Positions 9,864-46,798 of a stretch of DNA of 64,000 nt are shown here, piece by piece. The DNA is from an uncultured Actinomycetota bacterium. GTDB taxonomy: Bacteria; Actinomycetota; Actinomycetes; JAHEKZ01. The notes under the pieces are model-generated. The model saw only the letters and a list, made by a program, of their open reading frames with translations. It was not told where the DNA came from and searched no databases. Made by a program: the position numbers and the translations under genes. Within the stretch, counting starts at the first letter, position 1. Each line of letters starts with the position of its first letter. Where the stretch lies: positions 160,001-224,000 of the forward strand of contig CAVURN010000003.1 of NCBI GenBank assembly GCA_963743915.1, read 5' to 3'.

Positions 9864-9880
9864 TCACCCCGATGGGATCA
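9864..9880. promoter_or_regulatory. 17-bp TCACCC-N5-GGATCA site (recurring motif, copy 1)
   Basis: Upstream of the DUF7144/DUF6325/SHOCT operon, 22 bp from a minus-strand GACCAT -10-like hexamer. Confidence 0.6.
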
Positions 9881-9896
9881 ACAACCCGACGGCAGC

Positions 9897-12103
9897 TCAG
9901 ACGCTGGGCAGCAGGCCTCGCGCTCGCGCTCGTTCGACGGCGTCCCCCCGTGAGGTCGCACCCAGCTTGCGGTAGATGGAGATCGCCTGGCTCTTGACCG
10001 TGTGCCGGGACAGGAACAGTGCCTCGGCGATCTGCGGGAAGGACAGGTGGGTCGGCAGGTACTGGAGTACGCGCAGCTCTGCGGTGCTGAGGGTCTGACC
10101 CGCCTCGTCCGCCGCGTCCACGCCGAGAAGATCCTCCGTCTCCGCCAGAAGAGCCGTCAGCACGGCCGACCCCTGACCGTCGCCGAAGAGCTCCTTCGCC
10201 TCCTGCAGCAGGACGCGCGCTCTTCTCGGATCATCCAGATGCAGCCACACTTGCGCGAGCACCAGGCGACCCTGGATCGCGAACCAGGGGAGGCTCGGAC
10301 CGATCAGAGCGGTGAGGCGCAGGGCGTGGTCGGCCTCGGCCCGAGCCTGGTCCCGGCGTCCGGCAGCCAGGTGCACCCGGGCCAGGGTCGTGTGGATGAC
10401 CGCCCCCGGCGGCAGGTACTGCAGCTGGTGCGCGGCCTGGATCTTCGACGCCCGCGCCGCCAAGCCATCGGCCCGCATCCAGGGCCTCGGTCTGCAGCGC
10501 CAGCATCGCTTCACCGGCGAGGGCGAAGGCGAGCAGGTGCGGCACCGGCACCCGCTCGGACAGATCCCTGCACGAGACCAGGTCCGCGGCCGCCCGCTCC
10601 TGACGTCCGAGCAGGCTCTCCGCGCTCGCCCGCAGGTAGTACGCGACCGTGAGCCAGGGCTCCTGGTCGGAGAAGCCTGCGATCGCGCGGCTCGTCCTCT
10701 CGACCATGCCGTCGAGTCCGCCGACACCGAGGAAGGCCTCGAGGATCGCCAGGTCGAGGTGGTAGCGGCCGCCCGCCGTCCTCATGCGCGACCCGACGGC
10801 TCACCGCCGCCGCGTAGTGGGAGATGCGCTCGGCGTCCCCGACGTGCGAGGCAGTCCACGCAGCGGTGAGCGCTAGTCCGCACTGCGCCTCCAGCCGCTC
10901 TTCGGGGATCCCGTCGATGAGGCGCTGGACCACGGAGTACTTGCCGGAACCCAGGAGCAGCCCCGAGTGCTCCCAGACGAGGTCGCCGAGGAAGCGGTCG
11001 TCGGCACACTGGCGGGCGTGAGCGACAGCAGGCTCCAGCTCACCGGCGTCGGCGTACCACTCGGCGGCGGCTCGGTGCGCGGCGTGGAACCGCTCGGTGG
11101 AGCGGGCACGTAGCTCACTGCGGAGGAAGTCGGAGAACATCTGGTGAAGCCGGAACGACTCGCCGTCGCCACGGACATGCCCAATGAGCTGGTTGTGGGC
11201 GGCGAGGGTTCGGAGCCGAGCCAGCGACCCGGGGGACCCGGAGACAGAGTCGCAGATCGGTCCGGACAGCTCGTCGAGCACGGAGACCGACATGAGGAAC
11301 GCCGCGTCGGACTCGGAGAGGGCGGCGAAGAGCTCGTCACGGATGTAGTCCGACATCCAGCTCGGCGCCCAGGCCGAGGGGTGGGTCTCGGCAACGAGCT
11401 CCGGCGAGGTCAAGATGGCGCGTCCGAGAAGGTAGACGCCGATCGGCCAGCCCTCGGTGAGCTCGACCACCCGCTCCAGCTGATCTCCGGGCAGGTGCAC
11501 CCCGAGCTCGTCCAGCAACAGCTGCGTCTCGTCGTCGTCGAGCGCGAGATCGTCCGAAGCGAGCTCAAGTGTGCGGCCGGTGCTGCGCAGACGCCGGATC
11601 GCCTGCGGAGTCTCTTCGCGACTGGCGACCACGATCTGCGAGCCAGCGGGCAGAGCGGCAGCAAGCGACGCCAGCAGTGCGTCCGTCGTCGGGTCGGTGA
11701 CGTTCATGGCGTCGTCCAGCACCAGGACGAAGGGCTCGTCCTGGCTGGCGACCATCCGTTCGAGGGACGGCAGCACCACCGAGAACCAGAGCGCGGAGTC
11801 GTGCACCACGGGCAGGGCTGACAGCCCCGGCGCCGGCCCCGACAGCTCGACGGCCAGTCGCTCCGCCAGCATGGCGGCGTTCGTCCCCACGGGGAGGGCG
11901 AGCCAGATGACCCGTCGGGGCTGGCGCTGCGTCCACTGGGCCACGAGGGTCGACTTGCCGTAGCCACCGGGTGCACTGAGCGAGATGACCCGCGCGTCGG
12001 CCGCGGCGTCCAGCCGCTCGAGCAGCCTCGTCCTGGGGACGACAGCTGAGGGCGGAACGACCGGGGCCGATCCCGCCTGGACGGGGCCCGGGCCGAGACT
12101 CAC
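9897..12103 (-). CDS. MalT-like ATP-dependent LuxR-family transcriptional activator (frameshifts ~10780, ~10470; start approximate)
   Basis: 'VPRTRLLERL', Walker A 'APGGYGKSTL', 'LVLDD', 'TEGWPIG', C-terminal HTH 'LSTAELRVLQYLPTHLSFPQIAEALFLSRHTVKSQAISIYRKLG'. Confidence 0.92.
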
Positions 12104-12191
12104 GCGCCAAAGGGTAGAGGAGCGGCGCTCGCGCTGCGCCTCGGCGTCAACGAGGTGTGCACTCACCGGGTCTCGGGTGTTGGATCGGGAG

Positions 12192-13113
12192 ATGCTGCTC
12201 GATCCTCGGGAGGTGCCCCTCGGCGGGCCGCGCGCGATGCTCGTGCGTCGCACCCTTCCGCACAAGGCCATCCGGACCATCGGCGCGTTCTGCTTCGTCG
12301 ACCACTACGGCCCGAACCGCGGTGAACCCATGGTCGTCCCGCCACACCCGCACACCGGCCTGCAGACCGTCTCGTGGCTGCTCTCGGGGACCATCGACCA
12401 CCGGGACAGCGTCGGCTCGGTGCAGCGGATCCACCCCGGTGAGCTGAACCTCATGACCGCCGGTAGCGGGCATCGCGCACTCGGAGTACTCCGTGGGCGA
12501 CGACGCCTTGCACGGCGTCCAGCTCTGGGTCGCGCTGCCTGAAGACACCAGGCACCAAGATCCCCACTTCGAGCACCATGCCGAACTGCCCACGACCGCT
12601 CGCGACGATCTCGAGGTGCGCGTGGTCATGGGTGATCTGCTCGGCCTGCGTTCGCCGGCCGCGACCTACTCGCCGCTGGTCTGTGCCGAGCTCCGCCTGC
12701 GGCCCGGAGACCATCGGCTGCCGGTCGAGTCGGAGTTCGAGCACGGGCTGTTGCTGATCGACGGTGATCTGGTGGTGGACGGGACCCCAGTCCCTCGCAC
12801 CGCGCTCCTGCACCGCTCGTCGGGGACCGATGCGCTTGACCTCGCGTCGTCCGGCGGCGCCACGGCTCTGCTGATCGGTGGCGAGCCGCTCGCCGAAGAC
12901 CTGCTCATGTGGTGGAACTTCGTGGGTCGGACGCACGAGGAGATCGTCGCCGCCCGGGACGCCTGGGCCTCCGGTCGCTTCGCCCCTGTGGTGGACGACG
13001 CGAGGGACCCGCTGCCGGCGCCGGACCTTCCCGGCGTCCGGCTGAAGCCACGGCCCAACCGGCCTGTCCGTCCGGAGGGAGTTGCCGACTCTATACCCCC
13101 TGGGGTATTCTGA
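12192..13113 (+). CDS. Pirin family protein (frameshift ~12465)
   Basis: 'VRRTLP...IGAFCFVDHYGP...PHPHTGLQTVSWL...HRDS...LNLMTAG', 'LHGVQLWVALP', 'MWWNFV'. Confidence 0.93.
13082..13111 (+). promoter_or_regulatory. Housekeeping-type promoter (TTGCCG-N18-TATTCT) overlapped by a CsoR/CstR/RicR-type operator ATACCCCCTGGGGTAT (13093-13108)
   Basis: ATA-C4-CT-G4-TAT palindrome lies between the -35 and -10 hexamers and overlaps the -10. Confidence 0.8.
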
Positions 13114-13145
13114 CGCGACCTTCCGACGACCGAGGAGAGCGAAGC

Positions 13146-13262
13146 ATGTGCAGTCCTGCCCGATGCCGCGGATGCGGAAAGACCACCTGGTCCGGCTGCG
13201 GAAACCACGCCGACCAGGTCCTCAGCTCCGTCGCACCGAGTGACCGCTGCGGCTGCCGCTGA
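13146..13262 (+). CDS. 38-aa Cys-rich peptide MCSPARCRGCGKTTWSGCGNHADQVLSSVAPSDRCGCR, putative metal or sulfur binder
   Basis: GAGGAG RBS, own promoter and operator, downstream hairpin; 6 Cys + 1 His (CxxC, CxxH, CxC). Confidence 0.85.
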   Translation: MCSPARCRGCGKTTWSGCGNHADQVLSSVAPSDRCGCR

Positions 13263-13272
13263 GCCGCCCAAT

Positions 13273-13323
13273 GCCGAGTGCGGGGCTGGATGACGTGGAG
13301 CGTCATCCAGCCCCGCACTCGGC
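13273..13323. repeat. REP-like perfect 23-bp-arm hairpin (same family as 8521), likely also a bidirectional terminator
   Basis: GCCGAGTGCGGGGCTGGATGACG-TGGAG-CGTCATCCAGCCCCGCACTCGGC followed by GGGCTTTT. Confidence 0.85.
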
Positions 13324-13347
13324 GGGCTTTTCCGGTCTTTGGTGTGG

Positions 13348-13722
13348 CTAGCTGAGGGCCTTCGCCTTGATCGAGTCGAACTCGGCCTGGCTGATGGCGC
13401 CGGAGTCGAGCAGCTCCTTGGCGCGCGCGATCTGGTCAGCAGGTGAGCTGCCGGCCGCCTCGCGGATGTAGGCGTCCTGGGCCTGCTTCATCTCGGTGGC
13501 TGCGGCCGCGTTGCGCTCGGCCATGCCGTGGCCCCGGACGATCAGGTAGATCAGCGCGGTGAGGAACGGGATGAAGATCAGAGCGAAGACCCAGATCGCC
13601 TTGACGAAGCCATTGGTCTCCTTGTCGCGGAACAGGTCGCTCAGGATCGAGAAGAGCACCATCAGCCACGCGAAGAACAGGAACGAGATGGCGATGAACC
13701 AGACGATGTCCCAGAAGCTCAC
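13348..13722 (-). CDS. PLDc_N-like 2-TM + SHOCT membrane protein
   Basis: 'FSILSDLFRDKETNGFVKAIWV...YLIVRGHGMAER', SHOCT 'ADQIARAKELLDSGAISQAEFDSIKAKAL'. Confidence 0.9.
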   Translation of the reverse strand: MSFWDIVWFIAISFLFFAWLMVLFSILSDLFRDKETNGFVKAIWVFALIFIPFLTALIYLIVRGHGMAERNAAAATEMKQAQDAYIREAAGSSPADQIARAKELLDSGAISQAEFDSIKAKALS

Positions 13723-13805
13723 AGGACTACCTTTCTGACAGCGACGGACACCCCGACGGCACCCGATCGGGGCTCATGCTCCCACAGGAGCCGCGCCATA
13801 CCCCA

Positions 13806-13822
13806 TCACCCCGGCGGCATGA
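13806..13822. promoter_or_regulatory. 17-bp TCACCC-N5-GCATGA site (recurring motif, copy 2)
   Basis: Upstream of SHOCT gene 13722, 24 bp from a minus-strand GAGCAT -10-like hexamer. Confidence 0.55.
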
Positions 13823-13832
13823 AGCGCCCCGC

Positions 13833-15993
13833 TCAGCCCCGGGGCAGGTCCTGCCGGTGCCCGGCGGAAGGCAGGTCCTGCCGGTGCCCGAGGCGCTCCA
13901 GCCAGCGGACGAACTGCCGGTGGATGTTCTCCGCCCCCCAGATGCGCCCCGCTGGGTCGGTGAGGTCGGCGTCGACGGTCCACGCGGCCGGGTGCACCAC
14001 CATCGGGAAGGTCTGCCAGCCGCCGAGTCCGCCGTGGCAGCCCACGAGCTCCTCGAAGGCCGCGACCTCGTCGAGGCTCTCGTTGTAGAACGAGTTCAGG
14101 TAGACGTCGGGAGCGTCGGGGAACTCGGCGATCCGCAGCAGGTCCTCGCGGGCGTGGGCCTCGAAGCCGGACAAGCGGGTCGTCACCGGTCACCTCTCCG
14201 GTGCGCAGGTCCATCGAGCCGTGCTTCCCGATCACCACCGGACCACGCTCCGACATCACCGTGGCGAATCCGACTCCGGGGTGGGCGACCAGACCGGCGA
14301 CCAGACCCGGGTACGCCTCCTCGAGCTGGCCGAGGTGCTGCCTTCCCGGCAGGCGGGGAAACCAGACTCCCCCGAGGTTCCCCGACCCCACGACCACCAG
14401 GGCCGGACGTTCGGCGTCCGGGCCGCCTGCCGCCTGCTTCTGCTCGGCGACCGGTCCCAGGGCGCTGTCGGAGTCCCGCCTCTTGGTCACGCGTCGGGCG
14501 ACCTTGGCCGACACCGACTGCTGCTGGGCGAGCTGGCCGACGAGCACGTTGACCGGTCCCCACGCCTCGACGTCAGCCAACGCCTCCACGCCGGCGCCGC
14601 CGTCGTCCATCAGCGACTCCACCAGCTGCTGCAGCGTCATGCCGTACCGCTGCTTGAAGGTGGCGCCCTGGCTCTGCCCGTGGTCGGAGACGAGGACGAT
14701 CTCGTACGGACGCGGAGTGATCCCTGAGCTGGCGACCCGCTCGAGCGTGGACACGACGCGGTCGAGTCCGAAGAGCGCATCGGTGGCCTCGCGCCGCACC
14801 ACGCCGGCGTGGTGGGCGATCTCGTCGTAGTCGACGTAGTCGACGTAGATCGACTTCGCGCCGCGCATCATCGACTCGACCACGAGCGCGGTGTTGAGGT
14901 CACGCAGCAGCACGTTCGTGACGCCACGCAGCAGCACGTAGCTGCCGTGCCGGTCGATGCGGGGCTCGATCCCACGCCGCCGCTGCTGGCGAGCCTGGTA
15001 GAGCTCCTTGAGCATCTCGCCGATCGTCATCACGAACGCGCGCGCGAAGCCGGCCGGGTGCGTGAAGAAGGCCGCATACGACTGCGACGGGCCGAGCCCG
15101 GATCTCGGCTGCTTCATGCCGCTCATCGTCAACAGGGAGACCGGGGCGTCACCGGAGAAGAGGTTGCTGATGCTCACCCCGTCGTCGGCCAGCAGTCCTC
15201 GTCCGTCGCTGACCCGCGACTCGATGAGTGCGGCGTCCGGTGGGTGGTTGGCGACGACGAGCTCGCCCCGCTCCTTCTCGTACCAGCGGAACGCCGGGAT
15301 GTTGTCGTTGTTGCCGTGCAGGATCCCCGCCTGGCTGACCGGTGTCGTGCTCGGCAGCGCGGTGTTCCACGCGTCCATGCGGTGCGTGCCCGTCCGCAGC
15401 CAGCGACTGATCGTGGGCACGTTGCCGGCCAGCACGTGCCAACGCAGCACCGCTTCGGGTACGCCGTCGAGCTGCAGGAACAGCACCCCAGGCTGGTCGG
15501 TCGGCTCCTGCTGCTCGTTGCGCATGCTCATGCGGGCGGCGTGCACGATCAGATAGTTCTGGGTGTTCACCGAGAACAGCCAGCTGATCAGGGCCAGGAT
15601 GATGCCGTAGATCCAGGACGCCAGCAGCGTCTCCCAGAAGCTGCCCACCACCATGCCTGGGGTCAGGTTCAGGATGATGTCGATGACCACCGCGTTCGCG
15701 AAGATGGCGAGCAGGATCGCTCCCACCCAGCCGAGGAAGCTCGCCACCCACGCGAGCACGACCTGCGCGAAGGGGCTCAGCAGCGAGAACAACAGCGCCG
15801 CCAGCGGGATGGACCACCACTCGTCCGGGTAGATCCCCGGTGTGAGGGCGATGGTGAAGGCCAGCACCGCCCACGTCACGACGTAGTTGGCCACCATCTG
15901 CCGAAGCGTGGAGCGGCGGTCGGGGGTCGATCGGCCGGCCAGCGCCGCTGCGAGCTTCTGCTCGCGCCTCCGTCGCTCCCAGAAGCGGCTCAT
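13833..15993 (-). CDS. 4-TM holin-like domain fused to an alkaline-phosphatase/nucleotide-pyrophosphatase domain (frameshift ~14180)
   Basis: N-terminal 4 TM; 'FLQLDGV', 'LPSTTPVSQAGILHG', 'YVDYDEIAHHAG', 'LVSDHGQSQG', C-terminal 'FEELVGCHGGLGGWQ' in another frame. Confidence 0.85.
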
Positions 15994-16066
15994 GAGTACG
16001 GCGATCCCTTCTTTCTACGGGATCCCTGTGACAGGGCACCCGAAGGGTTGAGCGGGGCGCGCCTCA

Positions 16067-16137
16067 CGGGGTCACTCGCATGGGGTCACTCGCATGGGTC
16101 ACTCGCCGGGCTCACTCGCATGGGGTCACTCGCCGCC
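16067..16137. repeat. Tandem repeat of ~5 imperfect 13-14-bp units (GG)GGTCACTCGCAT
   Basis: ggggtcactcgcat ggggtcactcgcat gggtcactcgcc gggctcactcgcat ggggtcactcgcc; the last unit contains the LURP1 stop codon. Confidence 0.85.
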
Positions 16138-16635
16138 TCGGCGGGAGAGGGCGTCGATGCAGACGGTGATCGCCAGCAGCAACGGGACGTTCTGCTCGCC
16201 CTCGACCTCGACCCCGTAGGTGTCCCTGACCCGGAACCACTTGCGCGAGACCTCGGCCACCTGGTCGCCGTCACGCTCGATCTCGTACTCGTGGTCGAGG
16301 AAGTTGCCCTTGGCCGTGTAGTCCTCGCCGTCCTCGAAGTCGACGACGTACCGGTCACGGATGCCGAGCAGACGCTTGTGCACCTTCGCCTCACGCCCAC
16401 CGATCTCGATCGTCATCGTGTCGCGGATCGCGAGCTTCTTCTCCTTGATGGTGGCGAGCTCCTTGCCGGACGCGTCCTCGAGGACGAACGTCTCTCGGAA
16501 ACGCACGGCCTTTCCGTCGACCTTGTACACCTTCTCGCCGTCGGAGTCCTCGACCCAGAAGTCGTTCCCGATGTCGAAGACCTTCTCGCGCATGCAGAAG
16601 GTGCGCTTGGTGGGCTTGTCGCGCCGTAGTCCCAT
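16126..16635 (-). CDS. LURP-one-related / scramblase-like (Tubby C-terminal) protein
   Basis: 'MREKVFDIGNDFWVEDSDGEKVYKVDGK', 'GNFLDHEYEI', 'VSRKWFRVRDTYGVEV'. Confidence 0.9.
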   Translation of the reverse strand: MGLRRDKPTKRTFCMREKVFDIGNDFWVEDSDGEKVYKVDGKAVRFRETFVLEDASGKELATIKEKKLAIRDTMTIEIGGREAKVHKRLLGIRDRYVVDFEDGEDYTAKGNFLDHEYEIERDGDQVAEVSRKWFRVRDTYGVEVEGEQNVPLLLAITVCIDALSRRGGE

Positions 16636-16689: not shown

Positions 16690-16706
16690 TCACCCTGCCG
16701 GGGCGA
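16690..16706. promoter_or_regulatory. 17-bp TCACCC-N5-GGGCGA site (recurring motif, copy 3), between divergent genes
   Basis: 23 bp from minus-strand TACGGT (16661-16666) and 22 bp from plus-strand CAGGGT (16729-16734). Confidence 0.65.
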
Positions 16707-16767
16707 TGCCGGTGTGGTCGATCGGAGGCAGGGTATGGAGTAGGGCACTACTACCAAGGAGGACGAC

Positions 16768-16935
16768 ATGGCCGAGGCCACGACCGCAGACCGGCTCGAG
16801 ATCGTCGAGGTGCCCGAGCTTGCCGACCTCGAACAGGCCAAGAGCCGCGGGCTGCTCAAGGGGATCCTGATCGCGGCCGGAGTGGCTATCATCGCGGCGG
16901 CGATCGCCACCGTCTTCAGTCGGCGCTCCGGCTAA
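16768..16935 (+). CDS. 55-aa C-terminally anchored small membrane protein (absent from the ORF track)
   Basis: AAGGAGG RBS; MAEATTADRLEIVEVPELADLEQAKSRGLLKGILIAAGVAIIAAAIATVFSRRSG*; GC3-rich codons. Confidence 0.75.
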   Translation: MAEATTADRLEIVEVPELADLEQAKSRGLLKGILIAAGVAIIAAAIATVFSRRSG

Positions 16936-16969
16936 GCCCCTGGCGTCGTGAGACGCGAAGGAGGCGCGG

Positions 16970-18160
16970 GTGCCCGATCCGCTCACCAGCCTCTTCGTCG
17001 TCATGCTGGTGGCAGCAGCGGCACCGATCGTCACGCGACTGCTGCCGGACGCCGTGCCCCAGGTCCTCGTCCTGCTCATCGGCGGAGTCCTGATCGGGCC
17101 AGAGGTGCTCGGGTGGGCCGAACGCCCTGACATCGAGCTCATTGCCCAGGTCGGCCTCGGACTTCTCTTCCTGCTCGCGGGCTACGAGCTTCCGCCGTTG
17201 CTGCTCCGCCAGCGGACCGGACGCCTCGCCCTCTACGCCTGGCTCGTCTCCGTCGTGCTGGCGATGGCCATCGTGGGACTGCTCGAGCTGGCCGGCCTGG
17301 TCAAGACGTTCGTCCCGGTCTCCCTGGCCCTCACCACGACGGCGCTGGGGACGCTGCTGCCGATCCTCCGCGACAACGGGATGCTCACCGGACCGATCGG
17401 CTCCTACATCTTCGCCGCCGGAGCAGTCGGCGAGCTCGGTCCCGTTCTGGCCATCTCGATCTTCCTGGGCGCGAACGGGTCCTGGCAGTCTCTGCTGGCC
17501 ATCCTCGCCATCGCCGGCGTCGCCTACGTCCTCGCCCGACTCCCCCGCCACCTGGCGGGTACGCGACTCGGTGAGATCGTCGCGACCACGCAGGAGGCGA
17601 CGTCACAGTCGGTGCTCCGCGCCACCATCTGCCTGCTCCTCGGCGCCCTGCTGCTCACCCGGGACTTCGGCCTCGACATCGTGCTCGGCGCCTTCCTGGC
17701 CGGAATGATCCTCAAGGGCTCCAGCGACACCCCCGAGGCGCAGCACGAGCGCCTGCTCGACAAGCTGGACGCGGTCGCCTACGGCTTCTTCATCCCGGTC
17801 TTCTTCGTGTTCTCCGGGATGGGGCTCGACCTGGCGTCGCTGGCCGACAACCCGGTGCGCCTGCTCGTGTTCTTCGCCCTGATGCTGCTGGTCCGCGGCG
17901 GCCCTGCCCTGTGGGTCTACCGGAAGGACCTCCGGTTGCCCGAGCGGGTCGAGCTGATGCTGCTGTCGGCCACGGCGCTGCCGCTGATCATCGCCCTGGC
18001 CGAGATCGGGCTCGAGAACGGCACGATGCTCCCGGAGAACGCGGCCGCCCTGGTCGGCGCCGGCGCACTGACGGTCGCGGTGTTCCCGTGGGCCGCCACC
18101 TGGGTCCGCGATCGCCACCGACCCGAGACCGCTCCGGCCACCGCCTCTGACCTGCGATAA
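16970..18160 (+). CDS. Cation:proton antiporter (CPA2/Na_H_Exchanger)
   Basis: About 12 TM; 'GLGLLFLLAGYEL', 'LALTTTALGTLLPILRD', 'LGAFLAG', 'GFFIPVFFVFSG'. Confidence 0.92.
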   Translation: MPDPLTSLFVVMLVAAAAPIVTRLLPDAVPQVLVLLIGGVLIGPEVLGWAERPDIELIAQVGLGLLFLLAGYELPPLLLRQRTGRLALYAWLVSVVLAMAIVGLLELAGLVKTFVPVSLALTTTALGTLLPILRDNGMLTGPIGSYIFAAGAVGELGPVLAISIFLGANGSWQSLLAILAIAGVAYVLARLPRHLAGTRLGEIVATTQEATSQSVLRATICLLLGALLLTRDFGLDIVLGAFLAGMILKGSSDTPEAQHERLLDKLDAVAYGFFIPVFFVFSGMGLDLASLADNPVRLLVFFALMLLVRGGPALWVYRKDLRLPERVELMLLSATALPLIIALAEIGLENGTMLPENAAALVGAGALTVAVFPWAATWVRDRHRPETAPATASDLR

Positions 18161-19658: not shown

Positions 19659-22600
19659 TCACAGCGCCAACGGCTCGGCGGGCTGGACGCCGAGCCGTTG
19701 GCGTGCCCCGGCCACCAGCACCTCGACGGTGCGGGGTGCGACGAACAGCGCCCGCGCGACGTCGTCCACGCAGGTGCCGGAGTCGAACAGCTGCAGTGCC
19801 CTCAGCTCCAGCTCTGTCACCGTCTCGCGAGGGGTCGGCGGTCGAGGTGGCGTGACACCGCTGGCGGCGAGCCTCTGCGCAACCTGTTCGCGAAGACCGC
19901 CTGCCCGGCACTCGTCCACGATCTCCAGTGCGCGTTGCAGCGACGTCGCCCGTTCGTCCGCGTCGGACGTCAGCTCGGCGAGCACGAGCAGGGCGCGCAC
20001 CTGCTCCAGTGGCCGAGGCTCGGTCACGGTCACCGAGTGCCGTGCCAGCTCGACGGAGGCGTCGAGCTCCGCGAGTCGTCGCTCGATCGACCCGGTGACC
20101 ACCGGTGCACCCCAGTGCTCGGCCCGCTGCAGCTCGACGCGCAGGATCGCGCGCGCGGCGTCCTTCTCCCCCTGCGCGGCGAGCGCGTCGGCCCGGAGCA
20201 GTCGAGAGGTGTCCCAGCCGGGGTTGTGCATGCCGATGACCTCCGGCAGGAAGGTGTCGATGACGTCCAACGCTCCGGACCGGTCACCTTCGGCGAGCAG
20301 CGACCGCCGCGTGCGCCACGTGCAGCAGCCTGCGTCCCGTCCCGATCCCGGGAGCGGCCAGTGCCCGGTCGAGCAGGTCACGCGCACCGGTGAGGTCGCC
20401 CAGGTCGAGAGCGATGAGGACGAGCACCGCGTCGCAGAGCGGCACACCGATGGCCGCAGACCCCCACTCCTCGGTCTCGTAGCGTGCGCTCAGCACCGCT
20501 TGCTGGGCCTCGCGCAGCTGACCACCGAGCCACAGCGCGACTCCGCGCCACAGGTGCAGACCCACCGTGGACGTGTCGCCTCGCGCCTGAGCGCTCGCCA
20601 TGGCCGCGCCCCAGTGCTCGGCGGTGTCCTCTCCGGCGATGATGAGGGCGATGCCGGCCACCTCGTAGAAGACGTCGGCGGCTCCGGTCTGCCAGGTCGG
20701 GTCGTCGAGGGCGCCCCGGAGCAGGTCGAGCATCCGTTGCCGGTCGGTGCCCCTCAGGCTCAGCTCGAACGCCTGCTCCACCGCGAGCATCCGAGCGCCG
20801 AATCCCGACGGCGTCACGTCCAGCTCGCCCATCCAGCGGTCCGGGGGCAGGTCGTGGATCCACCCGGACACCTTGGCCAACGCGATGAGTGCCTGACGCT
20901 GGTCGACGGCGTCCGCCGGCAGCTCGGTGACGGCCGACAGGGCGAATGAGGTCGCCTCACCCTCGGTGCCCACGAAGACCAGCGCGCTGGTCAGCCACAG
21001 GGCGATCTCGCCCCGCTGCTCGACGTCGGTGCAGAGTGCGTAGGCCCGTTCGAGCGTCTGCCGGGCGAAGACACCGTCACTCGTCCCGCCGAGGACTGCC
21101 GTGCGCACGAGCAGGTCCACGACATCGTCCTCCGGTGGAGGCTCCTCCAGGGCGCGACGCAGGAACGTGGTTGCGGCTTCGAGCGAGCCGCGCGACTCCG
21201 CCTGGTCGGCTGCGCGGAGGAGAAGATCCACCGTCTCGGGTCGTCCCCGCCGCGGGGCCTTCAGCAGATGCACTGCGACCTGCTCAGCAGGGTGACCGGA
21301 GTCGAGCAGCAGCTGTGCAGCGCTCTCGTGCAGGGAAGCCTGCTCCCCCGCGCCCAGTGACTGGTAGACCGCCTCTGCCACCAGAGGGTGCACGAAGCCG
21401 AGGGGGTACTCGTCGGTGAGCAGCTCGGCCCGCGCCAGCGCGGCCACGGCGTCCGCCACGTCCTGCTCGGAGGCGCCGACAAGAGCGGCGACGACGGGCA
21501 GCTCGGCCCGGTCACCGAGGACCGACACGGCTTTGGCCACTGCGCTCGCCTGCCCGGGAAGGCGTCGGAGTCGCAGCGTCACGAGGCTGCCGATCGCCCG
21601 CGAGCCGATGGCGATCACGGTCTCGGCGTGAGCCGCGTCCGGCTTCACCTTCTCCAGCGCGAGCGCTCGGAGCAGCTGGAGAAGCAGGAGGGGATTGCCG
21701 TCGGTCGCCCGGTGGCAGGCGTCGACAAAGGTCGGTGCGGCGTCCTTGCCGAGACGGCCCCGCACGAGCTCCGCCGAGGCCTGCGGCGACAGTCGGCCGG
21801 GACGGATGACGGTCGTATGCGGGTCGCCGGAGATCTCGGCGAGCAGCCGGTCGTCCGCGTGTGGCTCGCCGCTCCGGACGGTGCCCGCCACGACGACGCG
21901 CGAACCGGACAGCCGTTTCAGCACGAAGGTGAGGAACCGGAGGGAGCTCGTGTCGGCCTCGTGAAGGTCGTCGATCGAGAGCAGCACCGGTCGTTCCCCG
22001 GCTGCGGCCGCCACCAGTCGTGACAGACCCTGCAGCTGCCGGTACGAGTCGCCGGCCGTCGCCTCGTCCGCCCGGTCGAAGACGGCCCCGACGGAGGGTC
22101 CGAGCTCGACCAGGAGATGCTCGACCTCGGGCTCGTCGAGCAACGGTTCGAGCATCTGGCGCACCACTCCGAATCCGAACTCGTGCTCCATCGCGCTGCC
22201 CCGCGCCTCGAGCACCAGGAACCCCGCGTCCGCTGCCTGCGTCCGCATCTCGGCGAGGAGCCTGGACTTGCCGATCCCCGCGGGCCCCTCGACGACGACG
22301 AAGGCGCCCTGCCCGGCTGCGGCCCCGTCGAGGCAACCCCGCACCTGGGAGACCTCCGCGTCGCGGTCCACAAGGGGGTCGACCGCGGCCACCACCGCAG
22401 TCGGTCGAGCCATCGCTGGTGGAGGGGGTGGCGGCGGCGCGTCCAGATCGGACGCCTGCGCCAGCACGTCTGCCTCGAGCTGACGCAGGGCGGGGCCGGG
22501 GTCGACGCCGAGCTCGTCGGCGAGCAGCTCCCGTGCCCGACGGAGCGCGGCGAGGGCGTCGGCCTGCCGTGAGGAGCGGTAGAGCGCCAGGGCCAGGAGG

Positions 22601-23202
22601 CGCCAGTACTCCTCGTGCAGCGGGTCGTCGCTGGTGAGCCGCTCCAGCTCCGGGACCAGGACGCGGTGCTCTCCCGCGTCCAGGCGGGCGGCGAGCAGCT
22701 GATCGCGCGCGACCTGACGCAGCCCGTCCAGCCGGGCCGCCTCCGGTCGCGCCCAGTCCTCGTCCGGGTAGTCGACCAGGGCCGGTCCGCGCCAGAGGGC
22801 AAGAGCCTGCTCGAGGTGCGCCACCCGACGAGGCCCGGGAACCGATCCCGCCTCGTCGAGCAGTCGCTCGAAGCGCCACGCGTCCACCGCCTCCGATTCC
22901 GCGTCGAGCCGGTACCCGGTTCCCTGGCGGACGATCACCTGCGACTGCGCGGTCTTGAGCCGCCCGCGCAGACGGCTGATGTGCGAGTGCAGAGTCGAGG
23001 TGGCCGCGGGGGTGGGGCGGTCACCCCAGATCGCGTCCATCAACCGGTCTGCCGGGACAGCGTCCCCCCGGGCCAGCACGAGGAGCGCCAGGACGCTCCG
23101 CGGTTGGAGTCCCCCGAGGTCGATGGGGTCCCCGCCACGCGTCGCCACGACGGGGCCGAGGATGCCGATCTCGAGCCGAGCAGTGTCTGCCGTGACGGAC
23201 AC
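19659..23202 (-). CDS. SARP (wHTH+BTAD)-AAA ATPase regulator with a C-terminal LuxR-like HTH (frameshift ~20300)
   Basis: 'IGILGPV...QPRSVLALL', 'VDAWRFERL', 'ALALWRGPAL', 'PLHEEYWRLLALALYRSSRQADAL', Walker A 'GPAGIGKS', C-terminal 'TELELRALQL...VARALFVAPRTVE'. Confidence 0.9.
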
Positions 23203-24196: not shown

Positions 24197-24469
24197 TCAG
24201 GCGGAGATCGCCACGGCCGCGTGGGACTGCTGATCCGTGACGGCAGCCACTCGGCGGATCAGCCGCGCGACCGCTCGCTCACGTACCGCCTCGGGCGCGG
24301 ACGGGTCGAGCGCGACCTGGCAGAGCACCGGCGAGATGCCCAGGCCTCGGGCCGAGCGGACCAACGCGCGCACCTGCGTCAGGTGTGCTGCCAGGCCGTG
24401 CTCGTCGATCGCGCGGCCCAGGTCGGCCAGGTCGTGGGAGCCGGGGAGGGTGAGGGTGGTCGTGATCAT
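24197..24469 (-). CDS. 90-aa hypothetical protein
   Basis: GAAAGGA RBS, GC3-biased codons, 'GISPVLCQVALDPSAPEAVRERAVARL'; lies directly upstream of 24166. Confidence 0.7.
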   Translation of the reverse strand: MITTTLTLPGSHDLADLGRAIDEHGLAAHLTQVRALVRSARGLGISPVLCQVALDPSAPEAVRERAVARLIRRVAAVTDQQSHAAVAISA

Positions 24470-24529
24470 GGAAGGGTCCTTTCGGGAGTTGCTGACCCCA
24501 TGAGTCAAGGGCCGATCCTCGGGCCGGGA

Positions 24530-24548
24530 TTGAGTAGTCGATGCTCAA
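24530..24548. promoter_or_regulatory. Inverted repeat TTGAGTA-N5-TGCTCAA, candidate site for the adjacent LuxR-type regulator
   Basis: One mismatch from a perfect palindrome; extra half-site TTGAGTA at 24567-24573; in the divergent intergenic region. Confidence 0.6.
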
Positions 24549-24640
24549 TTCCCGCCCGCGCCGCCCTTGAGTACCTCCCGAACCCCCGCATGAAGGGCGC
24601 GCTGGGTGCGAGAGTGGGGCGCACGGCGGCGGGAGGTGAC

Positions 24641-35837: not shown

Positions 35838-35954
35838 GTGCACTCCTGCTTCGTGGGCATCGAGTCGTCGAGCCGCTCGGCGGTCATGATCGCGGAGAGA
35901 GGGAAGACCCGCCACTCACCGCGACCGTGTCGTGACCCGCGACGCCGGCCTCCG

Positions 35955-40631: not shown

Positions 40632-40671
40632 GCCTTACCCCGACAGCCACACCGCCACTACCCTGACGACG

Positions 40672-43663
40672 ATGACCGCCCTGATGCATCGCGTAGGTCG
40701 CATCTGTGCGGACAACGCCCTGGTGGTCGTCATCCTTTGGGTGCTCGTCGCGATCAGCCTCACCATCGCCATCCGCGTCTTCGGCGCGCAGACCGACAAC
40801 GACCTCTCCCTGCCGGGCACCGGCAGCCAGGACGCCACCGACGTCCTGGCTCAGCGCTTCCCGCCCCAGCAGAACGGCACCAGCCCCATCGTCTTCTACA
40901 CGCCCGACGGGAAGCTGACCGACAAGCAGCACAAGCCGGCGATGAAGGACGCCGTGGCCGCCCTCAAGAAGGCACCGGACGTCTACAGCGTCATCAGCCC
41001 CGTCTCCAGCAAGGGTCAGACAGCCGGACTGATCTCGAAGGACGAGGCCACCGGCTACGCACCGGTGCTGCTCACCATCGACTCCGGTCTGGTGGACGAG
41101 GACCTCGCGCAACAGATCCTGGACGCCGCGCGCGACCCGGCGTCGAAGGCGGGCATCCAGGTCGAGGCCGGAGGTTCGATCGGCAGCCGGCTGAGCGAGC
41201 CGAAGACCGAGAGCAGCGAGGTCGTCGGCCTGACAGCAGCGATGGTCATCCTCACCCTGGTGCTCGGGAGTCTCGTGGCGATGGGGCTGCCCATCCTGGT
41301 GGCGGTGTTCTCACTGTCGGCGGCGCTGTCGGTGATCGGGCTGCTCGGGCACCTCTTCGGGATCCCCAGCATCGCCCCGACGGTGGCGACGATGATCGGC
41401 CTCGGTGTCGGCATCGACTACGCGCTCTTCATGGTCACCCGCCACAAGGATCAGCTCGCGCGGGGAATGGGGATCAGAGAGTCGGTCGCCGAAGCGGTCG
41501 CGACGTCGGGAAGTGCGATCGTCTTCGCCGGCAGCACGGTGATCATCGCGTTGACTGCCCTCGTGCTGGCGGACATTCCCCTGGTCACCTCGATCGGTCT
41601 GGCCGCGGCTGTCGCGGTCCTCATCGCTGTCCTCGGCGCGACCACGCTGCTCCCCGCGGGCCTGTCCTTGGTCGGGAACGGCATCCACCGTCTCGCCGTC
41701 CCGTCCTTCCTGCAGCGACGCGAGGCGTCCTCGACCGGTGGCTTCTGGGGCGGCTGGGCGCGCGCCGATCACCGGACACCCCTGGATCGCACTCGTGGGA
41801 TCGGTCGCCCTGCTGGTGCCGCTGATCATCCCGGTCTTCTCGCTGGAGCTGGGCCAGGAGGACATCTCGGTGGCACCCACCTCGACGACGGAGCGTCGGG
41901 CGTACGACCTGACCACCGCTGGACTCGGTGTCGGGTACAACGGCCCGCTGCTCGTCGCGTCGACCCTCGACCCGGTGGCAACCCCAAGTGACAAGTACCA
42001 GAACCAGTACGACGAGGCCACGTCGCTGCAGAAGGAGCTCGAGCGGGAGAAGAAGTCACTCACCCAGCAGCAGAAGCAGCTCGAGGCGCAGCAGGCCGAG
42101 CTCGAGCAGCAGCAGGCAGAGCTCGAGGTCGAGGCCGCTGACCTGCAGACGCAGCAGGACGAGCTGCTCGCGGAGCAGAGCGCTCTGGAGTCGGAGAAGT
42201 CACAGCTGCAGGCCGCGCAGCTCGAGCTCGAGCAGCAGCAGGCCACCCTCGCAGCAGGAGGCACGGACGCTGAGAAGCGACGCCGAGGTGCTGGCAGGAG
42301 AGGCAAAGCGCACCGCGGCCGCCCTGGCAGCGGTGCGCGCTCGCGAGGCGGTCATCCAGGCAGCGGCTCGACGAAACCACCGATCCGAGCAGGATCGCGC
42401 GCCTCGAGCGACGCCTCGAGCGCGTCCAGGTCGCGCGAGCAGGCACTGGTGAGTCGTGCCGAGAGGCTCGAACGTGAAGGGCGTCGGCTCGCGCGGGAGG
42501 GGCGTCGACTCGCCGCCCAGGCGGAGCGGCTGCAGCAGGAGGGCGACGCTCTGCAGGCACAGGCAACGGCACTCAGCGCGCAGGCCGATGCGCTCAGCGC
42601 CCAGGCGTCCGGGCTGCAGAGGCAGGCTGACCAGCTGCAGGCAGAGGGTGACCAGCTCCAGGCGAAGGGCGACGCGCTGCAGGGTCAGGCGGACCAGCTG
42701 AAGGCGGAGCAGCAGAAGGCACAGAAGCAGCAGAAACGCGCCGAGAAGCTGCAGCGCGAGCTGACCAAGGAGCTGACGCAGGCAGGGGGGGACGATCGCG
42801 CGACCGACTCGAGAGTCGTGGCGCTGCAGAACACCCTGCTGGCGACTCCCGGTGTCGTGGCTCTGACGCCGCCGCAGGTGTCGAAGAAGGGCGACGCGCT
42901 GGTCATCAACGCGATACCGGCAACGGCCCCAGCCTCTGACGAGACCGCGGCACTCGTGGGCGAGCTCCGAGACGACGTGCTGCCCACTCTCACCGACGAC
43001 GGTCAGATGGAGTCGTACGTGGGCGGCTACACCGCCAGCTACGTCGACCTCGCGACGAAGATCGCCGACCGGCTGCTACTGGTGGTGCTGGCCGTGCTGA
43101 CGCTGAGCTTCCTGTTGCTGCTCGTCGCCTTCCGCTCGGTGCTGGTGCCGCTGCAGGCGGCCATCATGAACCTGCTGTCGGTCGCGGCGTCATTCGGCGT
43201 ACTCACGGCCGTCTTCCAGTGGGGCTGGGGACTGTCGCTGGTCGGGCTGGACGCGCCCGCGGGAACCGTCCCGATCGCCAGCTACGTCCCGCTGCTCATG
43301 TTCGCGATCCTCTTCGGGCTGTCGATGGACTACGAGGTCTTCCTGGTGAGCCAGATCGTCGCCCACCGTGACCAGGGATCAGCGCCACGTCCGGCCGTTG
43401 CCGAGGGTCTCGCCGGAAGTGCCAAGGTGATCAGCGCCGCCGCCCTCATCATGTTCTGTGTCTTCGGCAGCTTCATCCTGAACGGTGACCCGACCGTCAA
43501 ACAGTTCGGCGTCGGCTTGTCCGTCGCCGTCTTCCTGGCCGGGACGCTGGTGCTGATCCTCGCTCCGGCACTGCTGTACCTGTTCGGCGACCACACCTGG
43601 CGCCTGCCGCGCTGGATGGAGCGCCTGCTGCCCGACATCGGACTGAAGGAGGGCCCTCCGTGA
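40672..43663 (+). CDS. MmpL/RND-family transporter with a long coiled-coil insertion (frameshifts ~41765, ~42270-42430)
   Basis: 'LPGTGSQ', 'GLGVGIDYALF', 'ATSGSAIVFAG', 'GYNGPL', 'FGLSMDYEVFL', 'AALIM'; leaderless with TACCCT -10. Confidence 0.92.
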
Positions 43664-43690
43664 CCGTCGACTTGAACGCGGGCGCCGACG

Positions 43691-44524
43691 TCACGGCAGG
43701 CGAGGGACGAGCGGGGCCAGCACGTCCTGACCCTCCTGCACGATCCCGTAGTGCGACTCCGGCACCTCGATCCATGCGCCGCTGAGGTCCGACAGCGGTT
43801 CGGAGACGATGATGCGCGTCTCGTCGGAGACGTCACGCAGGACCTCCAGCTCGGGATGCAGCTCACGGACCGTCGCGACCAGGGCGCTGTAGAAGAGCGT
43901 GCGCGACTGTCCCTCACTCGAGTAGCGGAAGGCCCAGACGCGAACCCCGTCGGTGGTCACCACCGTCATCTGGATCGGCAGCTCGACGCCGTGGGCGCGT
44001 CCCACCTGCTCGACGTAGCCGATCATCCGCTCCACCGCGGTGACCGGATCCTGCTGCAGCCCGAAGCTGAGCGCCAGGTGGAAGAGCACCTCGGAGTCCG
44101 TGGAACCGACGATCGCCGGGTAGAGGCTGGCATCCACCGCCATCACGAGGTCACGCTTGACCTTCGCGAACTCGCGCACCGCCCCGTTGTGCGCCCACAG
44201 CCAGTTCTCGTGCCGGAACGGGTGGCAGTTGGTCTGCTGGACGGGGGTGCCGGTCGTCGCGCGCACGTGTGCGATGAAGAGCGGCGAGTGGATGTGCCGG
44301 GCCATCTCCTCCAGATTCGCGTCGGCCCATGCGGGTTGGACGCTCCGGAACAACCCGGGCACTGGGTCACCCGGGGCGTACCACCCCACCCCGAAGCCAT
44401 CGGCATTGAGCGCGGTCGCCCCCATCGCCGACTCGCGGCTCTGGTGGATGAGCGAGTTCGCCGGCTTCGAGACGAGGTACTCGATGGGCAGGGTCGATCC
44501 GGAGTACGCCAACCACCGACACAT
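43691..44524 (-). CDS. Stand-alone class II glutamine amidotransferase (Ntn, EgtC/YafJ-like)
   Basis: 'MCRWLAY', 'NADGFGVGWY', 'AHVRATT', 'NCHPF', 'HNG', 'GSTDSE', 'VSEPL'. Confidence 0.93.
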   Translation of the reverse strand: MCRWLAYSGSTLPIEYLVSKPANSLIHQSRESAMGATALNADGFGVGWYAPGDPVPGLFRSVQPAWADANLEEMARHIHSPLFIAHVRATTGTPVQQTNCHPFRHENWLWAHNGAVREFAKVKRDLVMAVDASLYPAIVGSTDSEVLFHLALSFGLQQDPVTAVERMIGYVEQVGRAHGVELPIQMTVVTTDGVRVWAFRYSSEGQSRTLFYSALVATVRELHPELEVLRDVSDETRIIVSEPLSDLSGAWIEVPESHYGIVQEGQDVLAPLVPRLP

Positions 44525-44551
44525 GCGTGACCTCCTCGCTCGGGACCAGCG

Positions 44552-45349
44552 TCACGTCTCCGTCGGGGCGACGGCCAGGGTCGGACGACCCTCGGACATC
44601 GTCATGAGCGCCGCCACGAGGAAGCAGACCGCACCGAGGAAGGTTCCACCGTTGGCGAGCGTCGCGTCGAGCATGGTCCCGGTGTCCGTGACGTAGGCCC
44701 CGACGGCAGAGACTCCGAAGAACACCGACCCCCACAGGTTCAGCGCGGTCACGTGCCAGTCGCGGTGCCGGGGACGCCACGACCACCACCGATGCCCCGC
44801 CTCGGCGAACGCGATCGCCGACGCCACCAGGAAGCAGGCCGAGCCGATCACGTCCGGACGCCAGATCACCCGGTTCACGAGGTCCTCGGGGACGGAGAAG
44901 AGGGACAGGAACGTCATCACGTTGAAGTAGAGCGTGCCGACCAGCTGGATCGCCGTCGCCCAGAAGCCCATCGCGTGCGGCGTCCATCCGAACCAACGGT
45001 GGCCGGACTCCCGCACCACCTGCAGGTAGGACAGGTAGGCGGCCGTGGTGAAGAACAACGAGCCGACGAAGTACGTCAGCGCCGTCGCCTCGCCACCGAC
45101 GGCGGACGCGTAGGCGGGGATCGGTCCCAGCACGAAACAGGTTGAGCCGATCGCGAACAACAGGCCGATCCACCAGGTCAGTCCGCGGTGCGAGACATCG
45201 GCCGCCTTGCGGTGCTGTCTGGCCTGCCACCGCACGACGCTTCCGTCAGGCAGCGAGTACCGGACCTCGGTGACGAAGGGACGCGGTCCCCGGACGACGA
45301 CGTCCGTCGCGTCGTCCGGGACGTCGACCGGCAGCCGAGCGGGTCGCAC
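44552..45349 (-). CDS. 6-TM membrane protein (YrhK-like)
   Basis: 'WIGLLFAIGSTCF', 'FVGSLFFT', 'WRPDVIGSACFL', 'NLWGSVFFG', 'GTFLGAVCF'; starts 2 bp after the gadB stop. Confidence 0.75.
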   Translation of the reverse strand: MRPARLPVDVPDDATDVVVRGPRPFVTEVRYSLPDGSVVRWQARQHRKAADVSHRGLTWWIGLLFAIGSTCFVLGPIPAYASAVGGEATALTYFVGSLFFTTAAYLSYLQVVRESGHRWFGWTPHAMGFWATAIQLVGTLYFNVMTFLSLFSVPEDLVNRVIWRPDVIGSACFLVASAIAFAEAGHRWWSWRPRHRDWHVTALNLWGSVFFGVSAVGAYVTDTGTMLDATLANGGTFLGAVCFLVAALMTMSEGRPTLAVAPTET

Positions 45350-45351
45350 GC

Positions 45352-46746
45352 TCAGTGGCGGAACGACTCGGTGTGATCAGGGTCGTGGGGCAGCTTGGCC
45401 GGGAGATTCTCGAGAAACTCGGTGGTCCGGCGCAGGTCGTCGAGGAAGAGATCGGCCAGGTCGCGGCCGAAACCGTTGCGCACGACGACACGCAGCCCGG
45501 AGAGGTCGGTGAGGTTGTCCGGAAGCGAGTAGGCGGGAACCTGCCATCCGCGCTCACGCAGCTTGGCCGACACGTCGTACACCGTGTAGTTGGTGACGTC
45601 AGGCTTGAGCCGGAAGAAGAACACGGGTAGCTCCGAGCCGTCCGAGAGCAGCTCGTACGGACCGATCTGAGCAACGGCCGCCGACAGGTACATCGCCGTG
45701 TCACGACACGCCTGCTGCACCTCGCGGTATCCCTCCCGGCCGAGCCGGATCAGGTTGTAGTACTGCGCGATGACCTGCGCGCCAGGACGGGAAAAGTTCA
45801 GCGCGAACGTCGGCATGTCGCCACCGAGGTAGTTCACGTGGAACACGAGGTCCTCGGGAAGGTCCTCGGGCGTGCGCCAGATGACCCACCCGACACCCGG
45901 GTAGACCAGGCCGAACTTGTGACCGGATGCGTTGATCGACCGCACCCGCGGGACCCGGAAGTCCCAAGGAAGATCTGGATCGATGAAGGGTGCGACGAAA
46001 CCGCCGGAGGCTGCGTCGACGTGCACCGGGATGTCCGGGCCACCGGACGCCGCCAGTGCGTCGAGCGCGTCCGCGATCTCCTTCACCGGTTCGTACGAGC
46101 CGTCGAAGGTCGACCCGAGGATGGCGACCACCCCGATGGTGTTCTCGTCGCAGAGCTTGAGTGCCTCCTCGGCGTTGAGCTGGAGTCGACCCTCCTCGAT
46201 CGGGGCGTACCGGGGCTCGACGTCCCAGTAACGGCAGAACTTCTCCCAGACCACCTGGACGTTGATCCCCATGACGAGGTTCGGGCGGTCCGTCGACAGT
46301 CCGGCCGCCTCACGGCGCTGCCGCCACCGCCACTTCAGAGCCAAGCCCCCGAGCATCACCGCTTCGCTCGACCCGGTGGTGGAGGTGCCGGTGGCCTGCG
46401 CGTCGCCCGGCGCGTTCCACAGCGCGGAGATGATGCTGACGCAGCGACCTTCGATCGCGGCCGTCTGTGGGTACTCGTCCTTGTCGATCATGTTCTTGTC
46501 GGAGGACTCGGCCATCAGCCGGTCGGCTTCCTCGTCCATGAACGTGGTGACGAAGGTGGCCAGGTTCTGCCGGGCGTTCCCGTCGAGCATCAGCTCGTCG
46601 TGGATCAGCCGGTAGGCCACCTTGGGGTCGAGTCCCTCAGGAGGCAGCGCGTCCTTGGGGATGCCATTGAGCTCGCCGGGCCGTGCGTACACCGGGGCGA
46701 TCGCCAGCCGTTCGAGCTCGAGAATCTCGTTGCGGTGCAGAGCCAT
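45352..46746 (-). CDS. gadB: Glutamate decarboxylase
   Basis: 'LDGNARQNLATFVTT', 'KNMIDKDEYPQT', 'GSSEA', 'HVDAASGGF', PLP lysine 'SGHKFG', 'NFSRPG', 'GWQVPAY'. Confidence 0.97.
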   Translation of the reverse strand: MALHRNEILELERLAIAPVYARPGELNGIPKDALPPEGLDPKVAYRLIHDELMLDGNARQNLATFVTTFMDEEADRLMAESSDKNMIDKDEYPQTAAIEGRCVSIISALWNAPGDAQATGTSTTGSSEAVMLGGLALKWRWRQRREAAGLSTDRPNLVMGINVQVVWEKFCRYWDVEPRYAPIEEGRLQLNAEEALKLCDENTIGVVAILGSTFDGSYEPVKEIADALDALAASGGPDIPVHVDAASGGFVAPFIDPDLPWDFRVPRVRSINASGHKFGLVYPGVGWVIWRTPEDLPEDLVFHVNYLGGDMPTFALNFSRPGAQVIAQYYNLIRLGREGYREVQQACRDTAMYLSAAVAQIGPYELLSDGSELPVFFFRLKPDVTNYTVYDVSAKLRERGWQVPAYSLPDNLTDLSGLRVVVRNGFGRDLADLFLDDLRRTTEFLENLPAKLPHDPDHTESFRH

Positions 46747-46781
46747 GGCGTCAACCTAGGCCCGCGCGGCCCTCGGGTCCA

Positions 46782-46798
46782 TCGTCCCGATCGGACCA
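46782..46798. promoter_or_regulatory. 17-bp TCGTCC-N5-GGACCA site (recurring motif, copy 4) at -36 to -52 of the leaderless gadB promoter
   Basis: 23 bp from minus-strand TAGGTT (46753-46758), which sits 6 nt before the ATG. Confidence 0.55.

Follow-up and report, generated by a model that had tools for sequence, protein, structure and literature searches.

Four intergenic palindromes of 17 bp, each followed by a -10-like hexamer, occur in a stretch of DNA from an uncultured Actinomycetota bacterium, and the question raised by this locus is which protein binds them and which genes they bring together. The stretch analyzed here (the window) comprises 64,000 nucleotides, positions 160,001 to 224,000 of contig CAVURN010000003.1 in assembly GCA_963743915.1; its genome (G000) is that of an actinomycete, 2.92 Mb in size, 70% GC and 90% complete. 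The original prediction was that the sites define an undescribed regulon, in which a MalT-like LuxR protein activates a DUF7144/DUF6325/SHOCT operon, a LURP1 gene, a cation:proton antiporter gene and the glutamate decarboxylase gene gadB. In this study, we describe the motif, its spacing, its conservation and its co-occurrence with the regulator. The four palindromes are very probably bound by the neighboring MalT-like STAND-LuxR protein, which is predicted to activate transcription from about -44, and the G000 set is an added member of a known regulon whose range is much wider than published.

The palindromes are present exactly as first written, at 9864, 13806, 16690 and 46782, and their hexamers lie within the proposed 22-24 nt (Table 1); the 24 nt at 13806 is 1 nt past the usual spacing. 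Orthologs of the 9864 site are present in the congeners G004, G006 and G010, and homologs of the PLDc_N-SHOCT gene behind the 13806 site are also preceded by sites in loci L100, L103, L113 and L045. A naive gene call places the 13806 site in coding sequence. It is intergenic because the phosphodiesterase gene upstream ends at 13833 in a shifted frame, whose C-terminus is 73% identical to the end of the orthologous protein. The hexamer of the gadB site, TAGGTT, is separated from the ATG by 6 nt; a leaderless transcript is therefore predicted, with the site centered at -44.

Taken alone, the four sites prove little. They are degenerate versions of TCATCC-N5-GGATGA, and this strict palindrome occurs once in G000 at spacer 5 versus 2-7 times at other spacers. 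A pattern fitted afterwards to the four sites gave 6 strand-matches (5 places) versus 2.07 +/- 1.58 by chance (2/100 shuffles). A matrix built from them was uninformative, with approximately 2-fold intergenic enrichment over the whole genome. With a refined model, which was trained without the gene-cluster loci of the genus and reads (CA)TCAYCCG-N3-CGGRTGA(TG), the scores were 23.7 (16690, left), 21.9 (13806, 24 nt allowed), 19.0 (9864), 18.8 (16690, right) and 15.0 (46782), values reached by 2, 2, 4, 5 and 10 of the 1757 upstream regions in G000, respectively. The site at 46782 is the weakest, with 3.5 bits and rank 150 in the window under the first external matrix described below. Two weaker candidates that had been proposed did not hold up: the 16-bp one at 16036 scored -14.2 and that at 35916 scored 0.1. 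In the window, no site that would indicate autoregulation was found ahead of the regulator gene (score -2.1), and the alpha/beta-hydrolase gene has no passing site, while its homologs in G066 and G219 do have one.

Outside the genus, the motif could be recovered de novo. We collected 67 loci with DUF7144 homologs and used 66 of them (L096, a partial match, was excluded), and their upstream regions fell into 22 groups. A search of these groups yielded the palindrome TCAnCCgnnncGGntGA, with log-likelihoods of 58.0 (width 17) and 79.4 (width 19) versus 38.8-47.9 at widths 15, 16 and 18 and 26-32 in five shuffles; a clear site is present in approximately half of the groups. The first external matrix, built from ten hand-picked sites of DUF7144 loci, was applied to 17 loci that surround regulator homologs (L098-L114; L115, L116 and L012, distant or short, were excluded). 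Intergenic matches numbered 41 at spacer 5 versus 8, 7, 7 and 7 at other spacers, and 33 versus 0-2 when only the 40-160 bp ahead of a start were counted. When 73 sites were paired with genes in 95 rows (some ten of which represent related Streptomyces genes), the -10 pattern started at 22 or 23 nt in 53 rows and never in more than 6 at another offset between 14 and 35, which supports the proposed class II activator position near -44. This spacing implies a predicted transcription start 34-35 nt after the motif.

The same distance has been published. In Actinoplanes SE50/110 (Droste et al. 2020, PMC7567727, available in part), a region of 51 genes encodes two MalT-like regulators of the LuxR type, and the 3' end of the motif TCATCC-N5-GGATGA lies 34.4 +/- 1.0 nt before 17 start sites. 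Deletion of ACSP50_3915, the Actinoplanes malT gene, lowers 42 of the 51 genes and its overexpression raises 39, i.e., this counterpart was shown genetically to activate its promoters (PMC7567727). Motif, position and activator type were thus already described, and the regulon is not a new one. Shared with this Actinoplanes-type MalT (MRLGR) regulon are the motif, the start-site distance, a MalT-like LuxR regulator in the cluster (often two) and the families DUF308 and, in A. missouriensis, DUF2252. The MalT-dependent families in Actinoplanes, i.e., SHOCT, DUF1269, AI-2E, glucosidase, alpha-amylase, diacylglycerol kinase, MFS and class II amidotransferase (PMC7567727), all recur behind sites in related loci or in the window, as judged by family name and not by sequence. 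By name, the G000 window contributes SHOCT and also class II amidotransferase, and DUF2252 is encoded at C2:48631. The two accounts also differ. The published range, in the part of the paper available, is five Micromonosporaceae, whereas we found the motif in Streptomyces, Kribbella, Nocardioides, Pedococcus, Acidimicrobiia and families of more than one class; the Actinoplanes consensus is shorter than the form of our refined model; and the G000 regulon is small and spread over several places, unlike that of Actinoplanes. The available target tables (PMC7567727) do not contain gadB-yrhK, LURP1, holin-phosphodiesterase, cytochrome bd, sulfatases, SulP or channels, all of which were seen here, and gadB, LURP1 and cytochrome bd appear to be new as targets. 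No paper that takes the regulon outside Micromonosporaceae came up in a literature search, from which subscription journals were mostly missing; three further Actinoplanes papers each refer to the region or the gene once, the accessible text of PMC11205506 only cites the Actinoplanes paper, and the match in PMC12211087 was a primer.

The link between the motif and the regulator was examined in 60 relatives, 28 with a MalT-like protein and 32 without; these are kin and not independent. Strict palindromes numbered 79 in the 93.6 Mb of the former and 20 in the 95.2 Mb of the latter, and at least three strict copies were present in 7/28 versus 0/32 genomes (G048, G050, G060 and G106 are included in these and in the phylum tallies, but none of the conclusions rests on them). 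The cluster of gadB, the 55-aa gene, LURP1, antiporter, holin-phosphodiesterase, PLDc_N-SHOCT, DUF7144, DUF6325 and SHOCT genes is partly conserved through the genus, and in three congeners the distance between gadB and the regulator is 6-9 kb. Of the 16 unit-heading rows from G004, G006, G009 and G010, 7 scored at least 14, versus none of 24 rows in nine genomes lacking the syntenic regulator (one slicing artifact was dropped from 8/17, and gadB and the 55-aa gene share one site). Counted by genome, high-scoring sites occur in 4/4 congeners with this regulator type and 0/9 without a syntenic copy. In G002, G003 and G012, the genes flanking the regulator's place stand side by side, with the regulator missing. 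In the gadB promoter alignment, site and -10 box are conserved round a variable spacer in G004, G010 and G009 and are eroded in others. In addition, a well-supported separate clade of MalT-like proteins with another helix-turn-helix (HTH) had 1 site in 10 loci (quick tree), and G003, G007 and G008 hold solely this clade. The motif is therefore tied to the MalT-like family by genome co-occurrence, the conservation pattern in the genus and the contrast between clades. Along with the Actinoplanes genetics, this supports the MalT-like protein as the likely activator; the DUF7144/DUF6325/SHOCT, PLDc_N-SHOCT, LURP1 and gadB genes are likewise supported as its targets by their sites and, for gadB, by proximity in congeners.

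We further analyzed the regulator itself, using the intact 723-aa ortholog of G004. It contains a STAND NOD module with Walker A and B motifs, which matched the E. coli MalT NOD module (8BOB) with an E value of 5e-29 over residues 11-406 in a sequence search of solved structures; of MalT, only the NOD part was matched in this search. E. coli MalT was also the top fold match for the predicted structure of the ortholog (predicted local distance difference test, pLDDT, 89). The ortholog scores 227 bits versus the NCBIfam MalT cutoff of 537. Its sensor region forms helical repeats in the predicted model and gives 23.8 bits for TPR_MalT versus a cutoff of 45; judged by these profiles, it is diverged from that of E. 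coli MalT. The two proteins share a homologous NOD module, Walker A and B, a TPR region and a C-terminal LuxR HTH. They differ in length (approximately 900 aa in E. coli) and in the sensor region, and the site here is a single inverted repeat; its half-site GGATGA resembles the E. coli MalT box GGA(T/G)GA (cited in PMC7567727). No mal genes were found among the predicted targets scanned, unlike in the E. coli mal regulon. By analogy with E. coli MalT, an inducer would bind the TPR region, the NOD module would take up ATP and then oligomerize, and two LuxR HTH domains would occupy the inverted half-sites TCAYCC, recruiting RNA polymerase where the downstream half-site abuts the -35 position.

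The pattern of strict palindrome with -10 box was also sought in 200 genomes across Actinomycetota plus G000. It had 192 matches in 40/201 genomes versus 18 control matches (at most 3 per genome), and at least 3 matches in 16 genomes, with a maximum of 29 copies. In one family outside this class (f53), the pattern occurs in 11/13 genomes, often bidirectionally from one palindrome. MalT-like genes were present in 11/20 stretches fetched around matches, and sites were found in named loci of all five taxa given above. Genes behind sites include DUF1269, DUF308, GAP, AI-2E, SulP, sulfatases, GH15, cytochrome bd, G6PD, channels, cardiolipin synthase, alpha-amylase, polyphosphate kinase and, inside operons, cation:proton antiporters. 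gadB lies directly behind a site in G000, G004, G009 and G010 and is a downstream gene in G034 and Kribbella. Outside the window, G000 has sites before a gene for a 436-aa membrane protein (C2:576182; homologs are also targets in L032 and L162), a DUF2252 gene (C2:48542), a SulP gene (C3) and, without a -10 match, a sulfatase gene (C5). The predicted regulon of G000 thus comprises DUF7144-DUF6325-SHOCT, PLDc_N-SHOCT, LURP1, gadB-yrhK-amidotransferase, DUF2252, the 436-aa membrane protein and the SulP transporter, probably the 55-aa gene, perhaps the antiporter behind it and possibly the sulfatase. The antiporter, proposed as a direct target, lacks a site here, and so do the antiporter genes of 4 congeners in which they come first in their unit; it would belong to the regulon only by read-through from the 55-aa gene.

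Several observations weigh against this assignment. The regulator gene of the window carries two frameshifts (near 10765 and 10455, relative to the G004 ortholog), and its correspondence to ACSP50_3915 is presumed from the regulator type. Four of the nine genomes lacking the syntenic regulator are only 73-85% complete, and the relatedness of the genomes means that p-values are overstated. G001 and G002 keep partly recognizable gadB sites, G002 still has, on a 2.6-kb contig, a distant regulator belonging to this broad type, yet its cluster sites score below 10, and the type-A regulators of L102, L037, L040 and L111 had no site within 8 kb. In Actinoplanes, motif binding by MalT was assumed and not assayed; maltose does not induce gadB (M 0.04), the decrease of gadB in the mutant (M -2.49) falls short of significance (adjusted p 1), and the cytochrome bd genes do not drop in the mutant (PMC7567727).

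Among alternatives, chance palindromes in 70% GC DNA, chosen after the fact, are hardly credible. The low enrichment of the four-site matrix and the lack of enrichment of the strict pattern in G000 are what this explanation would have to offer; de novo recovery, the specificity for spacer 5 and for the -10 offset, the genus and phylum counts and an identical published motif refute it for the motif as a class, although the site at 46782 by itself could be chance. A different binding protein, BldM or a BldM-like orphan response regulator, is very improbable. G000 encodes a 210-aa NarL-type regulator (C1:245881-246510, L145) whose C-terminus we take to be BldM-like (NCBIfam gives sub-cutoff NarL-type matches only) and whose recognition helix contains TVKTH, as do those of many MalT-like proteins. 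The Streptomyces BldM homodimer site, TCACcCgnncGgGTGA, also has the half-site TCACCC of our sites and a LuxR-type HTH as its reader, but it is 16 bp long (Al-Bassam et al. 2014, PMC4125116; the same half-site in 16 bp in PMC8914203; both available in part), and BldM is a response regulator with developmental targets rather than a STAND protein. The signal here is specific to 17 bp, with 7 intergenic matches at spacer 4 versus 41 at spacer 5; the sites are concentrated around MalT-like genes and weaken in genomes that lack the syntenic copy, and the Actinoplanes genetics point to MalT (PMC7567727). A single extra base between like half-sites thus separates MalT-like from BldM sites. It is also improbable that the regulon is a relic in G000, with a true pseudogene as regulator and decaying sites. 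The two frameshifts, the degenerate sites, the lone strict palindrome and the missing syntenic regulator in 9/13 congeners would fit such decay. However, frameshifts split the pirin, phosphodiesterase, ABC ATPase and MMPL genes as well, and the sites retain their -10 spacing. The frameshifts in the regulator are likely an assembly error, because the two short-read contigs spanning it have 2 gaps each (a count only, without positions) and the pirin gene differs from contigs by one base in 3/3 short-read runs.

Given the MalT-like regulator and its sites, what the regulon does is a separate matter. An acid or ion-stress role, as originally suggested, is plausible from gene content, and the most likely output, to which we would give slightly less than an even chance, is that the membrane, the pH of the cytoplasm and its ion balance are protected at a late stage of growth on abundant carbon. 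The Actinoplanes data on gadB and cytochrome bd given above speak against such a role. Arginine deiminase, ornithine carbamoyltransferase, carbamate kinase and a permease constitute a catabolic acid-resistance pathway. In Actinoplanes, the arginine deiminase operon is strongly MalT-dependent (M -4.9), and these genes were filed under arginine biosynthesis (PMC7567727), which suggests that they are open to re-reading as acid resistance; this operon and the target list fit the pH, ion and membrane role. With the same regulator and sites, the response could instead be to maltodextrin or carbon surplus, with maltotriose as inducer, as in E. coli, and with gadB and the transporters incidental and no role in pH. 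The Actinoplanes region is induced on maltose versus glucose (PMC7567727), the one case in which dependence on maltose is known, and GH15 glucosidases, alpha-amylase, G6PD and polyphosphate kinase are found among the targets. Yet no maltose metabolism gene is affected in Actinoplanes, according to the available part of PMC7567727, the sensor region scores low for TPR_MalT, sequence matches to solved structures are, for MalT, confined to the NOD part, and most targets are membrane proteins, channels and sulfatases; we consider this response rather unlikely. A broader form of the stress role is also tentative, and doubtful at present: the Actinoplanes maltose region would be a local copy of a phylum-wide, STAND-switched stress regulon for pH and membrane. 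It would repeatedly have recruited proton-consuming or ammonia-releasing enzymes, antiporters, channels, cytochrome bd and lipid enzymes, with gadB (G000, G004/G009/G010, G034, Kribbella) and arginine deiminase-ornithine carbamoyltransferase-carbamate kinase (Actinoplanes) among the recruits, and its regulator would be global in f53 (14-29 strict promoters per genome). If true, this would provide a first function for DUF7144, DUF6325, DUF1269, DUF2252 and bacterial LURP1. In any case, the precise promoter pattern makes it possible to recognize throughout the phylum a regulon known from one family, and it places a dozen uncharacterized protein families under one switch. In E. coli, the GadE glutamate acid-resistance system also has a LuxR-type activator upstream of glutamate decarboxylase, like gadB of G000; GadE differs in being a small regulator that uses another site.

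Table 1. Palindromes and genes of the cluster in the 64,000-nucleotide window
Feature	Position	Strand	Remarks
MalT-box palindrome	9864..9880	-	upstream of DUF7144-DUF6325-SHOCT operon; -10 GACCAT 9841-9836, 22 nt
MalT-box palindrome	13806..13822	-	upstream of PLDc_N-SHOCT gene; -10 GAGCAT 13781-13776, 24 nt
MalT-box palindrome	16690..16706	.	between divergent LURP1 and 55-aa genes; -10 TACGGT 16666-16661 leftwards (23 nt), CAGGGT 16729-16734 rightwards (22 nt, weaker)
Degenerate MalT box	46782..46798	-	upstream of gadB; -10 TAGGTT 46758-46753, 23 nt
MalT-like STAND-TPR-LuxR regulator	9897..12103	-	AAA, TPR, LuxR domains; start approximate
SHOCT-domain protein	8613..8882	-	Pfam PF09851
DUF6325 protein	8901..9344	-	Pfam PF19850
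DUF7144 membrane protein	9377..9781	-	Pfam PF23636
PLDc_N plus SHOCT membrane protein	13348..13722	-	
Holin-like 4TM plus phosphodiesterase	13833..15993	-	frameshift near 14185; cluster member
LURP-one-related protein	16126..16635	-	Pfam PF04525
55-aa membrane peptide	16768..16935	+	conserved within genus
CPA2 cation:proton antiporter	16970..18160	+	target only if co-transcribed with 55-aa gene
Class II glutamine amidotransferase	43691..44524	-	likely gene 3 of gadB operon
YrhK-like membrane protein	44552..45349	-	likely gene 2 of gadB operon
Glutamate decarboxylase gadB	45352..46746	-	TIGR01788 666 bits, cutoff 380

For the holin-phosphodiesterase gene of the cluster, a site of its own is doubtful, the best score being 11.3 at 16072. 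Between this gene and LURP1, 3-4 short tandem copies (ggggtcactcgcat-like) are present at 16066-16135, two of which overlap marginal motif matches at 16072 and 16112. The G000 gadB is approximately 55% identical to gadB of its congeners and 85% identical to that of G027, from another family, and this closer match suggests that it may have been recruited separately in G000. No GadC-type antiporter was identified next to it. A family member of the amidotransferase in its operon is MalT-dependent in Actinoplanes (PMC7567727). A further motif-like palindrome at 54403-54419 (11.3 bits) lies 46 bp before a DMFA2-like gene (52851-54365) and has no correctly spaced -10 box. The G000 assembly seems to be rich in indel errors; genes split by frameshifts include an ABC ATPase (7375-8516), pirin (12192-13113), the holin-phosphodiesterase (13833-15993) and MMPL (40672-43663).

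In other genomes, the following was observed. Upstream of DUF7144 in Ilumatobacteraceae (L035-L037, L040, L043), a variant palindrome, TCCGCC-N5-GGCGGA, precedes a TACGTT/TACGGT box. TCCGCC-type sites are mostly found beside regulators with the helix SRYTVKTH, and co-variation of site and HTH, judged by eye, is possible. In L045, L046, L049, L063 and other Streptomyces loci (approximately 9500-9810), a conserved gene of 65-69 aa with no Pfam family, preceded by a separate site and -10 box, stands between the MalT-like gene and that for DUF7144. The f53 genomes G066, G124, G138, G152, G219 and G231 have 14-29 strict promoters each and several MalT-like paralogs, and sites also precede some of the regulators themselves (L208, L212, L220), making the protein a candidate global regulator.

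Two other LuxR-type regulators of the window were rejected as the activator, since they had no ortholog in motif-bearing loci and only weak HTH-level matches. The one at 19659-23202 is of the SARP-BTAD-AAA type and carries a LuxR-like piece at its C-terminus, and that at 24221-27274 is an AAA-TPR-LuxR regulator; between them lies a 285-aa protein that weakly matches RTX repeats. Upstream of a 38-aa Cys-rich ORF with no Pfam family (13146-13262, plus strand), the palindrome TATACCCCCTGGGGTAT at 13091-13109 (plus strand) presumably resembles a CsoR/RicR copper operator, and a similar palindrome occurs upstream of the regulator in G004 and G010. Finally, a long frame at 47354-51025 (plus strand) contains laminin G, phytase and PKD domains.

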